A stretch of 64,000 bases of DNA from the NCBI GenBank assembly GCA_963726195.1, contig CAVSBO010000013.1, positions 32,001 to 96,000 on the forward strand, given 5' to 3'. The stretch's first letter is position 1, and every line of letters begins with the position of its first letter. Positions 20,244 through 23,339 of this stretch are shown one piece after another. A model generated the notes under the pieces. The model did not search any database, was not told where the DNA came from, and saw nothing but the letters and a program-made list of their open reading frames with translations. The DNA comes from Candidatus Thorarchaeota archaeon (GTDB lineage Archaea > Asgardarchaeota > Thorarchaeia > Thorarchaeales > Thorarchaeaceae). The translations under genes were made by a program, and so were the position numbers.

Positions 20244-20341
20244 GTCCTTCGTGATGGCTCAAGTCACCCTTCAGCCACTATCCGATGTGCTCGACAAGAG
20301 AATCACTGAGCAGAGTCGTAGTTCCGAATGTCTGGAGCGGC

Positions 20342-20632
20342 TTAGCCTGTGCGCTTTATGATATGGTATCCGAACTTGGTCTTGACAGGTTCGGTAGTCA
20401 TTTGGCCAGGACCCAAGGCGAATGCAGCTCGCTCAAATTCCGGGACCATCTTGCCCCTCTCAAACCAGCCGAGGTCTCCGCCTTTGCTCTTCGAGGGACA
20501 AGTGCTGAACTGCTTTGCCATGTCCGCGAAGCTTGCACCTTCGTTTATCTTCCTGATGATTTCCAAAGCTTGGCTCTGTTTCTCTACCAAGATGTGGCTA
20601 GCTTTCACTTTTCCTGCAGTGCTCTTGCTCAC
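20342..20632 (-). CDS. Single-domain parvulin peptidyl-prolyl isomerase (PpiC-type)
   Basis: [13 protein letters not shown]...[18 protein letters not shown] and [10 protein letters not shown] motifs; GAGGTGA RBS upstream. Confidence 0.95.
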
Positions 20633-20645
20633 GAGTATTCACCTC

Positions 20646-20717
20646 GCCGTTCATTGTAGAATGGACAAATCTAGACATAAGTCCTTTGTCCTCTCAGGAA
20701 CGGCACTGAGATTGCCG
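20646..20717 (-). other. Nested hairpins over the 3' end of the TnpB-like gene (candidate omegaRNA / right end)
   Basis: GCCGTTC 20646-52 pairs with GAACGGC 20698-704 and encloses GGACAAA 20663-69 / TTTGTCC 20685-91. An alternative stem is CGGCA 20701-05 / TGCCG 20713-17. Confidence 0.4.
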
Positions 20718-22814
20718 GAGTGAATTATGTTACGTGCCGCATTTATGTCTGCATGAATGTGCAAACCGCAATGTGGACAGTAGAAGTATTCCCCACCCTT
20801 CTTCTCAGTCATGGATTCTTTGCCATGGACTCGGAGCCCTCTCTCTTTACACACATGGCAGGTCTGAGAGGTCCATGCGGGGTTTACTGTCCACACGCTA
20901 TGCGGCGAATGACCAAGTGCCTGCCGCATGTACCTGATTCTGTCAATGGTCTGTCCCCACATGTTTGCGGTGAGAGCCCATGAAAGACCTTTGTACCCAC
21001 TCGGGGCTTCGTCAGCTCCTCAGATCCTCAAGGTAGAGCGTTTTGACGTTGTGCTCTTCGCAGAACCAAACAGTGTGTGAGGCGACAACCCGAGAGACCT
21101 CGCGGTCGAGACGACGGACCTTGTGCCAAAGAGCATCTAGGTTCCTTTCCTTCTTGAGGAGGGACGATGGATGCGACTGCCCCGGCCTCTTTGTCTCCCA
21201 GTTATTCATTTTGTGTTTGACTTCTCCTTGGAGGAATGAGGCTTGCCTTCTAAGGCGTTGCCTCTTACTCAAGAGAGGCTCCATTCTTACCAGCTGATCA
21301 GAGTATGTTTGGTCTTGTAGAACCGATAAAGCGACAGAGACCCTGAGCCCTCTGTCTGCCCCCGCAAGCGAATCGTATGTTTTGTTCTCAAGTCTCGGGA
21401 GGGCTTTCGTGTCGGGTGCGTGGAATGGTATCTGGAGTGTCACTCTGTGCCCCCGAATGAGAAGCTTGGGGGGAGCAGACCTACGGAGCTTCTTCAACTG
21501 TGAGACTTCTTTCTTAAGTTCCACGAGCTTCTCGGACTCTGAATCGCCTTTGCGCCTGATGTGCAGCTCGTGCGCCTTGTGCTGAAATTGGATGGTATTC
21601 ATGAGCTGCTCGTGCATATCTCGAAAGACGCAAGCTCTAAACTCAAGTCTCTCTGCTCTGTAGGGCAGATTTGAAGCCCTTGCCTGGTCCGCTTTGACAG
21701 TGTCCCCACGCGATGCCTGTGGAAGCCAGTTCAGAAAGCGAAATGTCAACGTTCGACAATCGCGTGTGGAATCGTCGATCCTCGTCCCGGCCATGCCACG
21801 AGGGAGCTTGATATGCAAAAGGACTTCGTTGTTCTTTTCGGTGTCTGATTCGAACCAGTAGCCTTGCCCGGTACTGTTCTCAGTAGAAGCCGAATAGTCG
21901 AGACTCGGGCTCTTGAAGCGTGGCGTAGTAGACTTGTATCCGTTCTTAGACCAAGAGTCGACCTTGTTGATGATAAGCGCCCGAATAGCATCTTTCTTAG
22001 GAGAAGGCTTGCTGAGGCCTCGTCTGACTCTCAACCTTTGCCCTACTCTTGTTCCCATTGGTTGTTCTAATTCAGAAATCACAACTTGGTCAAGTGCGCT
22101 TCTGAGTTGTCGGAGGACCGAGAGTGCATAATGATAGCCTGCGCCATTCTTTCGGACTAGTTCGCAACTATCTCGGACCTTGCGGATCAATCTTGCCACG
22201 ATCCATTTCTCACTCAGCAGCTGAATAGCATCCTCTTGTGAATCACAGAGAAGGCGAATAGCAGACGTGGTCAGCTGCCTTCTGATGTATTGGGAGAGAA
22301 TGATGCGGCCGGCCTCTTCCAACGCGTCCCTGTGGAGACGCTCAAATATGAGATTCTGGAATTCCTTATTTCCTTGGTAGCAGAGGTCGGTTTCCTTGCG
22401 AAGTAGGTTGTATGCTTCTCCCCTGTACAGTGAAAGTTCGTGTCCGATTTGTTCAGCACGTTGAGGACTGGTGTAGACTCTCTCAAGAATCAGGTTGACG
22501 ACATCCACGTATCGTTTCATGTATGATTCAAGGGTGTTGAGGTCCACAGTACCGACTTTGTTTCCCGCGACTTTCGTCAGAAGTGAGAGCCGATGTAGAG
22601 ACCGGCGGCTGTGCTTCTTCGAGAACGAGGGGTTTGGGCAGGAGCCAGACCCTTTGCGTATTACGACTCGATCTCGAGAATTGAGAATGAATGATTCAGT
22701 CAGAAAACTCCGGGTCGCATGCTCAGCGACTGATGACTCATTTATGAAGTTGTCATCAATCGTCTCCTGCTTTGTAGGCAGCCTGTGATGACACTGGGTT
22801 GTTTCTGTTGCCAC
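20651..22814 (-). CDS. Large TnpB/Cas12-like RuvC nuclease with zinc finger (~720 aa; frameshift 21013)
   Basis: RuvC-I AGADRGLR, bridge-helix region, RuvC-II LYLEDL, VNPAWTSQTCHVC...FYCPHCG and RuvC-III HADINAARNI. Removing one base at 21013 joins the 600-aa and 103-aa ORFs (EDLRSYEAPSGYKGLSWALTANMWGQ). Confidence 0.88.
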
Positions 22815-22836
22815 ATGCCAGCACTCTCTAAGAGTC

Positions 22837-22856
22837 TATGCTCGAGCATATATCTC
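22837..22856 (-). promoter_or_regulatory. Putative TATA promoter of the TnpB-like gene overlapped by a perfect 14-bp palindrome
   Basis: Minus strand reads AGATATATGCT (22855-22845) about 30 bp before GTG 22814; the same 11-mer precedes the corrinoid gene leader at 48573. Palindrome TATGCTCGAGCATA at 22837-50. Confidence 0.5.
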
Positions 22857-23024
22857 CGTAAGTTATACAGACGTGCTGGGAACCTGCCATTAGACTATCT
22901 TTTCGACACCTACGACATGTAAAACAGTGACTGTGGACAGAATTGAGCGCATAATACGCAGATGAGCACCAGCGAATGACACCGGTTCTTTAGGACCTGA
23001 GCTTCCTTTGTTGTTCGGTGCAGA

Positions 23025-23261
23025 ATGAGAGTAGTCACGATATGCTTGCCAGAGTCCTATGTTGAAGGCATGGACGCTTTGATAAAGAAGGACATGTACC
23101 CAAGCCGATCAGAGGTCATTCGCATGGCCATAAGAGACATGTTGGTGGCAGAACTCTGGAAGGAGGAAAGGCCATCAGGTTTGCGTCCTATGCTAGGACG
23201 GGGCGAGCGGCCATCTGCAGTTCCCTTAGAGCGAGTATCTCCTATCGGGCAGTATAGGTAG
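23025..23261 (+). CDS. Ribbon-helix-helix (CopG/Arc/MetJ) transcriptional regulator
   Basis: MRVVTICLP...MDALI....YPSRSEVIRMAIRDML. Confidence 0.9.
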   Translation: MRVVTICLPESYVEGMDALIKKDMYPSRSEVIRMAIRDMLVAELWKEERPSGLRPMLGRGERPSAVPLERVSPIGQYR

Positions 23262-23339
23262 TCTGTACGACTCAATTAGCTTTTTCTTGGGAGCTTTCGT
23301 TCACTATTACCTGATATCCAAAGGCAGAGGAATGCGGAT

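Follow-up and report, generated by a model that had tools for sequence, protein, structure and literature searches.

A probable tnpB-only derivative of an IS607-family transposon with an enlarged TnpB-type nuclease in Thorarchaeota

We analyzed a 64,000-nucleotide stretch of DNA from a Candidatus Thorarchaeota archaeon (assembly GCA_963726195.1, contig CAVSBO010000013.1, positions 32,001 to 96,000; the whole stretch is called the window in the following and is numbered from its first letter) with a focus on a large gene for a TnpB-like nuclease. The coding sequence is located on the minus strand (20651..22814, GTG start at 22814, TGA stop at 20651-20653), comprises 720 amino acids if a spurious base at 21013 is left out and is the sole gene with a TNB domain in the window. 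A putative TATA/BRE-like box (BRE, B recognition element) with the sequence GGAGATATATGC is present at 22846-22857 on the same strand, about 35 nt upstream of the GTG start, where it aligns with a GAGnTTATAT box found in related genes. Downstream of tnpB, a host gene for a parvulin-type PPIase (20342..20632, minus strand, PF00639 at 4.2e-25) starts 18 nt past the stop codon, and a host gene for a ribbon-helix-helix (RHH, CopG-type) protein (23025..23261, plus strand, PF01402 at 5.3e-6) lies on the other side. An initial annotation of this DNA had already described both the TATA-like box and the position between these two genes, but considered tnpB as a stand-alone and possibly domesticated gene of an undescribed system. 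Our analysis points to a gene of a known kind, which belongs to a selfish mobile element and was brought in by a recent insertion, and not to a domesticated host system.

In the assembly, the gene is split into ORF A (21012..22814, 600 amino acids, ending with YLEDLRS before the stop) and ORF B (20651..20962, 103 amino acids), which are offset by +1 with the junction AGG AGC T GAC GAA; the base at 21013 creates the apparent frameshift and an in-frame TGA. Removal of one base at this junction joins both parts to EDLRS-DEAPSGYKGLSW with a spacing of 17 residues, which equals that of an intact paralog in the same genome and of the homologs in the databases. In three public runs (X1, X2 and X3) from two studies, the contigs lack exactly this one base, and one of these contigs is otherwise the same as the window over 20845-21047. 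Therefore, the gene is intact with 720 amino acids and the frameshift is an assembly error, and the repair proposed in the initial annotation together with a check by other reads holds on these public contigs. A programmed +1 frameshift at AGC UGA C was also considered, but the site is not slippery and the contigs of the public runs lack the base. In a related strain with about 96% identity (3.6% divergence), in which one contig spans 20502-23000, the same insertion is present and the ORF is open. The 32 substitutions listed for the ORF, out of about 90 differences, comprise 17 synonymous and 15 nonsynonymous changes, and this approximately threefold deficit of amino-acid changes suggests that the protein has been under purifying selection. 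Taking the frameshift as real and the gene as the dead relic of an insertion sequence seems quite improbable to us: such a pseudogene would fit the in-frame stop in the window assembly, the frameshifted appearance of three of the four copies in this assembly and a degenerate 5' regulatory region, but the extra base is absent from the public contigs, the 96%-identical strain combines an open ORF with a synonymous excess, and the catalytic and zinc ligands are all intact.

The repaired protein contains the three acidic RuvC motifs and the zinc finger predicted initially, with GADRG (RuvC-I, D487, 21348..21362), LEDL (RuvC-II, E596, 21024..21035) and HADINAARN (RuvC-III, followed by I, 20729..20755) as well as the CxxC...CxxC finger of the TNB domain (CHVC...CPHC, 20768..20860), all on the minus strand. 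The D-E-D triad is invariant in family alignments of 18 and 55 sequences, and about 486 amino acids precede RuvC-I. ORF B matches PF07282, the Cas12f1-like TNB domain, with 1.6e-16 and 60.7 bits (cut-off 26.3). For the structure we used an AlphaFold model of the intact paralog from the same genome, which is 53% identical to the window protein (pLDDT 80.6, pTM 0.73). This model resembles AsCas12f (PDB 8dzj) with a Z-score of 18.4 and an rmsd of 4.0 over 382 of 416 residues and covers model residues 11-687, followed by ISFba1 TnpB (PDB 8iaz, Z 15.1), Fanzor2 (PDB 9b0l, Z 14.7 over 368 residues) and ISDra2 TnpB (Z 14.3). The match to Cas12f and TnpB extends along the whole length and includes the WED-REC-RuvC-TNB fold, and according to the model about 300 residues are inserted into a TnpB/Cas12f core. 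The inserted blocks are mostly helical by the secondary structure of the model (model residues 71-273, 346-426 and 496-571).

Starting from the 600-amino-acid ORF A, we found more than 260 clusters (90% identity) of proteins with 690-725 amino acids and 43-54% identity, nearly all of which stem from metagenome bins of Thorarchaeota, with 'zinc ribbon domain-containing' or 'transposase' as their most specific names. In a profile search of 1.8 billion representatives, full-length matches were confined to this tight family, and outside of it only profile positions of about 480-700 (RuvC/TNB) match other proteins; therefore, the N-terminal 470 amino acids or so are conserved but family-specific at the sequence level. 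An enlarged TnpB/Cas12-like nuclease, as initially annotated, is in agreement with the intact predicted catalytic triad and with a long N-terminal part that is conserved in a clade almost confined to Thorarchaeota. The species-representative genomes contain 58 related loci, often five to seven per genome. The genome of the window itself (G000) harbors four full copies, on contigs C13 (the window copy), C16, C3 and C8. It also contains a partial copy (C13:118358), which is broken at the 3' end, and two smaller fragments of right ends. The window copy is the sole member of its subfamily in this genome, and the nearest paralog has 53% identity. The gene is therefore no orphan, and the term 'stand-alone' is not supported for a gene that lies in a 2.24-kb insertion, ends in the guide-RNA and right-end module of its family and has relatives with an IS607 TnpA.

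This right-end module is located at 20646..20712 (minus strand), spans the stop codon of tnpB and resembles an omegaRNA whose scaffold ends with ACGG (covariance model R1, 72.5 bits). In the window it is predicted to form the hairpin P1 (CUCAG/CUGAG), P2/P3 (GGACA...UGUCC) and a pseudoknot between the loop GCCGUUC and GAACGGC, with a folding z-score of -3.4. A nucleotide block composed of CCAGTGCCGTTCCTGG, GGACA...TGTCC and ACAATGAACGG(T) is kept in about 50 loci wherever the stop codon falls, and the similarity between loci ends directly after ACGG(T/C). An alignment of 44 sequences was used to test P1, P2 and a pseudoknot in which the P1 loop pairs with the terminal GAACGG(Y). Pairing holds in 96.1% of the cells, compared with only 27-47% if the partners are slid by 1-3 columns as a control, and compensatory changes occur at 10 of the 17 pairs. 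The many G-U pairs identify the sense strand as the folding strand. A search of 20300-23300 against Rfam with E up to 1 matched no family. The flank transcribed after the scaffold would serve as guide; for the window copy the predicted segment (20626..20646, minus strand) covers the Shine-Dalgarno sequence GAGGTGA and the GTG start codon of the parvulin gene.

The covariance model detects 24 copies of the right-end module in G000, and four or five of them follow tnpB genes. About 17 of the 24 sit in miniature inverted-repeat transposable elements (MITEs) of about 190 nt, which consist of a left end with AGTTGGACAATCTTGGACA, an own TATA box (GGCTTAAATAGC), a 7-bp hairpin and the right-end RNA module. 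The left-end AGTTGGACAATCTTGGACA is an inverted repeat of TGTCCAACTTTGTCCAACT at the right end. These MITEs (C16:77205-77462, C4:111560-111819, C8:162251-162587, C3:337130-337717 and about 13 more) lie outside the window, and the sister species G001 and G003 contain dozens of them. As judged from its layout, each MITE would produce a stand-alone guide RNA whose guide comes from a flank that differs between the elements. For one MITE of G000 we found a scarless empty site, ...AAAAAGGG/T..., in the related genome G002: the empty site reads ...AAAAAGGGT/TCTGCAC..., whereas in G000 ...AAAAAGGGT is followed by the element ending with ...ACAATGAACGGT and then by TCTGCAC.... Insertion occurred without target duplication, GG(T) is common to target and element end, and the left flanks of the MITEs read AGGG(T/C). 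For the IS607-family element CboIStron it has been shown that target and target-adjacent motif (TAM) are TGGG with a strict GG core, that the omegaRNA scaffold ends with UCGG and that self and non-self are told apart at position -3 (bioRxiv 10.1101/2023.11.20.567912). The insertion signature of the MITEs and the scaffold end match this experimentally established IS607 rule. At three loci (L008:6977-7060, L010:7883-7960 and L011:6567-6600) the DNA past the element end, C(A/G)GTGGCT(T/A)AG..., resembles the start of a tRNA-like sequence, and a tRNA 3' end (GGATTCGAACC) is located nearby on the opposite strand; this tRNA-like flank may be a preferred insertion site.

The window copy itself is an inserted tnpB-only element of IS607 type with a length of about 2,242 bp (20647..22888, minus strand). 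The homology with the same-genus genomes G002 and G003 halts at ...TCTAAT (22889 upward) and restarts at the Shine-Dalgarno sequence GAGGTGA of the parvulin gene (20645 downward). The right end reads ...ACGG/C and the left flank ...AATGG/C, and because GGC is present at both junctions, the boundaries of the element are ambiguous by up to 3 nt each. The parvulin and RHH genes are neighbors at a distance of 130-200 bp, without the insertion, in both G002 and G003 as well as in eight or more further relatives, and by this comparison the copy appears to have inserted in the lineage of its own species. The insertion is lineage-specific and no case of conserved synteny, which argues against an old domestication. 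We therefore do not support the domestication considered in the initial annotation, as genomes of the same genus and family lack the 2.24-kb insertion between the parvulin and RHH genes, and as the right-end guide-RNA module, the IS607 TnpA of the relatives and MITEs with a scarless empty site point in the same direction. The original target and TAM of the window copy could not be read from the sister species, as 95-115 unrelated bases occupy their sites.

A link to an IS607 transposase comes from nine related loci and L089, which encode proteins of about 200 amino acids with a MerR-like helix-turn-helix and a resolvase domain (NCBIfam NF033518, IS607 family transposase, 174-176 bits); they include L027, L045, L049, L053, L057, L059, L065 and L089. 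G000 contains exactly one IS607 tnpA (C3:855067-855624), which is part of an element with the order left end, tnpA, a giant gene on the opposite strand, tnpB and right end. This element and the MITEs share the same left end, and both kinds of element combine AGTTGGACAATCTTGGACA at the left end with its reverse complement AGTTGGACAAAGTTGGACA at the right end. No match to Pfam Y1_Tnp or Pfam Cas1 was found in the G000 assembly, which is 88.9% complete. This result together with the single IS607 tnpA suggests that nearly all TnpB elements of this genome are non-autonomous. Besides the large copies, G000 has about 30 TnpB genes of ordinary size (350-490 amino acids). The absence of transposase and repeat array from the 64 kb, as described initially, holds for the window, where neither TnpA nor a repeat array is present; the IS607 tnpA of the genome is located on another contig.

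These findings also bear on the idea that the protein is a compact, Cas12-like type V CRISPR effector whose array and adaptation genes are located elsewhere or were missed. The top structural matches are Cas12f proteins and the size is within the range of small Cas12 variants, but a CRISPR-like repeat array is absent from the 64-kb window, the assembly has no Pfam match to Cas1, the guide-like module is the right end of a transposon with MITE copies and empty sites, and the relatives are linked to IS607 TnpA. We consider a type V effector as highly improbable.

In addition to the right end, the scaffold end occurs a second time within the first 27 or so codons of most family members, where it is composed of a hairpin and a 7-nt pseudoknot arm after ACAAT (96.9% of cells paired, 89 double-sided changes). 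The arm is followed by a word of 12-16 nt, termed X, and the same word is present 118-150 nt upstream, where it abuts the TATA box of the gene (5' regions of L002-L063, for example L014:4280-4440, and C16:26941 and 27062 in G000). The identity between the upstream and the downstream word is about 1.0 at positions 1-11 and drops to background after position 16. Word X is locus-specific, found nowhere else in the G000 genome and changed at both places between the 88%-identical paralogs on C16 and C8. As a tentative idea, the enlarged and catalytically intact TnpB of this family might take a short guide from the 5' end of its mRNA, sit with it on its own promoter and repress this promoter, and possibly also the promoter of the divergent giant gene. 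The upstream word is preceded by TTGNT or ATGAT, whereas AGGG is the TAM indicated by the MITE flanks together with the empty site, and the lack of a GGG-type TAM weakens the view of the upstream word as an ordinary DNA target of TnpB. Pairing of X with the mRNA of the giant gene is also unlikely, because that gene has its TATA-like box at a distance of about 35 nt from the ATG, far away from the upstream word, so that the giant transcript should not contain X.

In the window copy this 5' region is degenerate. The hairpin CCAG..CAGG has one mismatch (22752..22798, minus strand; loop GUCAUCA, arm UGAUGAC), the two family-conserved ATGs have been lost so that only the GTG at 22814 is left, and there is no upstream word X. 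The right end contains TGGACAAATCTAGACA, for which no convincing partner was found upstream of the TATA box. As the left end is degenerate, the window copy may no longer move. Possible immobility and purifying selection keep alive, at low probability, the view of a stranded copy which the host has retained as RNA-guided DNA binder or nuclease. Such a copy might act at or near the parvulin promoter, or it might serve the guide RNAs encoded by the MITEs. Apart from the state of the left end, which also lacks the subterminal repeat, it would be in line with the only copy of its subfamily in G000 (53% to the nearest paralog), the synonymous excess in the ORF, a predicted guide that covers the parvulin Shine-Dalgarno sequence and start codon, and a hairpin and pseudoknot of the MITEs much like those of the window copy. 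However, the insertion is young and absent from species of the same genus, and the nuclease triad is intact, unlike in known domesticated TnpB repressors. Furthermore, the guide match adjoins the ACGG end of the element itself, a 'self' motif that stays uncut in the characterized IS607 system (bioRxiv 10.1101/2023.11.20.567912), and selection over only 3.6% divergence fits a selfish element equally well. We therefore regard co-option by the host as unlikely.

Taken together, we assume with a probability of about 0.75 that 20647-22888 is a non-autonomous element with tnpB as its only gene, derived from an IS607-family transposon of Thorarchaeota, and that it encodes an intact TnpB-type nuclease of 720 amino acids and, across the stop codon, the 3' part of an omegaRNA scaffold. 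Several points weigh against this assignment. The profile scores are low, with 17 bits for the window ORF B and 17-25 bits overall against Pfam OrfB_IS605 (cut-off 30.5), 3e-19 and 69.6 bits for the best NCBIfam match, guided_TnpB (cut-off 100), and 15.9 bits against NCBIfam IS607_TnpB (cut-off 350); by sequence the family appears as a divergent branch of TnpB. There is no TnpA in the window, and the only one of the assembly belongs to a paralog of about 40% identity. The left end lacks the TGGACA-type subterminal repeat of the MITEs and of the C3 element, and its flank reads ATGG and not AGGG. The unrelated bases at the insertion site of the sister species leave no clean empty site for this copy, the dN/dS estimate is a partial one, and the omegaRNA and the expression of tnpB are predicted from the sequence.

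If the non-autonomous IS607-type element behaves like the characterized IS607 and IS605 TnpBs, the following course of events can be envisaged. The tnpB gene would be transcribed from its own TATA box, and the 3' end of the transcript would fold into P1, P2/P3 and the pseudoknot up to the terminal ACGG. The next 16-20 nt of the flank, here the Shine-Dalgarno sequence and start codon of the parvulin gene, would become the guide. If a serine-recombinase TnpA acting in trans excised the element, the complex of TnpB and RNA would cut the rejoined empty site, where a GGG-type TAM lies beside the guide match, and homologous repair of the cut would restore the element.

The giant gene mentioned above codes for 1,600-1,900 amino acids and is located divergently, 180-230 bp upstream of tnpB, in about 35 of the 58 related loci and at three of the four G000 copies (L066:14490-19616, corresponding to C16 of G000; also L085-L089 and about 35 of L008-L065). 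It seems to be restricted to Thorarchaeota, and the window copy lacks it as well as tnpA and has the RHH gene at the position of the partner. The giant protein has no match in Pfam, PADLOC, NCBIfam, the PDB sequences (profile search) or the ESM Atlas features, and a Foldseek search against the PDB returned nothing at E <= 1e-3. From a model of the first 800 residues (pLDDT 82), VIA-wide alone gave Cas1-like and RecA-like domains. Residues 1-257 are predicted to form a Cas1-like helical catalytic domain with E99, H189 and D196/D199 as candidate active-site residues (Z 12.8 with 195 aligned residues for A. fulgidus Cas1), and the top eight structural matches of this part are all Cas1 or casposase; residues 591-800 are RecA/KaiC-like with Z about 10. 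A D..ExK motif that resembles PD-(D/E)xK is present near residue 420. We also considered an identity with aloposons, for which tandem genes of 3,000-6,000 amino acids, integration at tRNA sites and a MinD/ParA operon have been described (Wu et al., 2022), but none of the defining features of aloposons was seen in the elements with the giant gene.

Three of the four large TnpB copies of G000 look frameshifted, namely those in the window, at C3:861004-862745 and at C8:106955-108669, and the giant genes on C3 and C8 also appear frameshifted (fragments in L067 and L068), whereas frameshifted copies are almost never seen in other genomes. As the frameshift in the window is an assembly error, those on C3 and C8 may be errors too, and in that case the assembly has a problem with indel errors that could split other genes as well. 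In L068:6122-7931 (C8 of G000, approximately 114,720-116,530), all six frames remain open over about 1.7 kb, which suggests an unusual composition or a repeat. Within the window, positions 1145-1451 contain four diverged direct repeats of 40 nt (61-80% identical to the reference copy, spacing 66 and 135 nt), which are too diverged for a CRISPR array and probably represent a repeat within a coding region.

Among the known systems, the closest ones include the IS607-family TnpBs, for example those of CboIStron and ISFba1. Common features are the D-E-D RuvC triad with a zinc-finger TNB domain, a guide-RNA scaffold which covers the 3' end of the gene and terminates with CGG exactly at the right end, and a GGG-type target that differs by one base from the own end (AGGG/ACGG in the family, TGGG/TCGG in CboIStron). 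Also shared are autonomous copies with a serine-recombinase TnpA with MerR-like helix-turn-helix, scarless insertion, here of a family MITE, and tnpB-only as well as MITE derivatives. On the other hand, the proteins of the family have about 720 instead of about 400 amino acids due to some 300 extra, mostly helical residues, their N-terminal 470 amino acids have no sequence relatives outside the family, they score below the curated cut-offs for TnpB, and most copies are accompanied by the divergent 1,600-1,900-amino-acid partner and the second, 5' copy of the scaffold end.

A second relationship concerns the aCas1-associated TnpBs. Altae-Tran et al. (2023, PNAS, PMC10691335) described two groups, Cas1H-Asgard-1 and -2, which are restricted to Asgard archaea and located beside an unusual Cas1 homolog in repeat-flanked loci, where a hypervariable, guide-like stretch is bordered by a conserved T and a motif of GTTCAC type, and proposed aCas1 as transposase. 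The family shares with them a partner whose residues 1-257 have a Cas1-like fold in the model and a variable word X followed by (G)TTCATCA, so that it is probably one of these two groups; the window copy differs by the lack of a Cas1-like partner. In contrast to the proposal of that study, the absence of target duplication, the GG core and the co-located IS607 TnpA argue for a serine recombinase. A literature search for TnpB together with Thorarchaeota found nothing, but with this survey and the Cas1-like N-terminal fold of the partner the description as an undescribed system in the initial annotation becomes doubtful. The window gene is of a known kind, and several traits at the level of the family are unstudied. 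The family joins three actors of recombination and DNA cleavage, the IS607 TnpA, the giant Cas1-like protein and TnpB, and the self-matching, guide-like word X may be a built-in regulatory circuit.

Cas12f, in particular AsCas12f, is the best structural match with the same order of domains. It differs in that the family has no array in the window and no Pfam Cas1 match in the assembly, takes its guide from a transposon end and not from a repeat-spacer array, and shares sequence similarity only in the TNB/RuvC-III stretch. Fanzor is likewise an enlarged TnpB-type nuclease, but structurally (Fanzor2, Z 14.7) no closer to the family than ordinary TnpB or Cas12f, and this structural comparison shows no special link between the Asgard family and Fanzor. 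Both Cas12 and Fanzor descend from TnpB. For the open question of how TnpB was enlarged from about 400 amino acids to the size of the effectors, this Asgard family offers a natural intermediate: a transposon-borne and, as far as the sequence indicates, active nuclease with about 300 extra residues. The well-delimited guide module and the many MITE guides in the same genomes make it a tractable candidate for biochemistry and for genome-editing screens.

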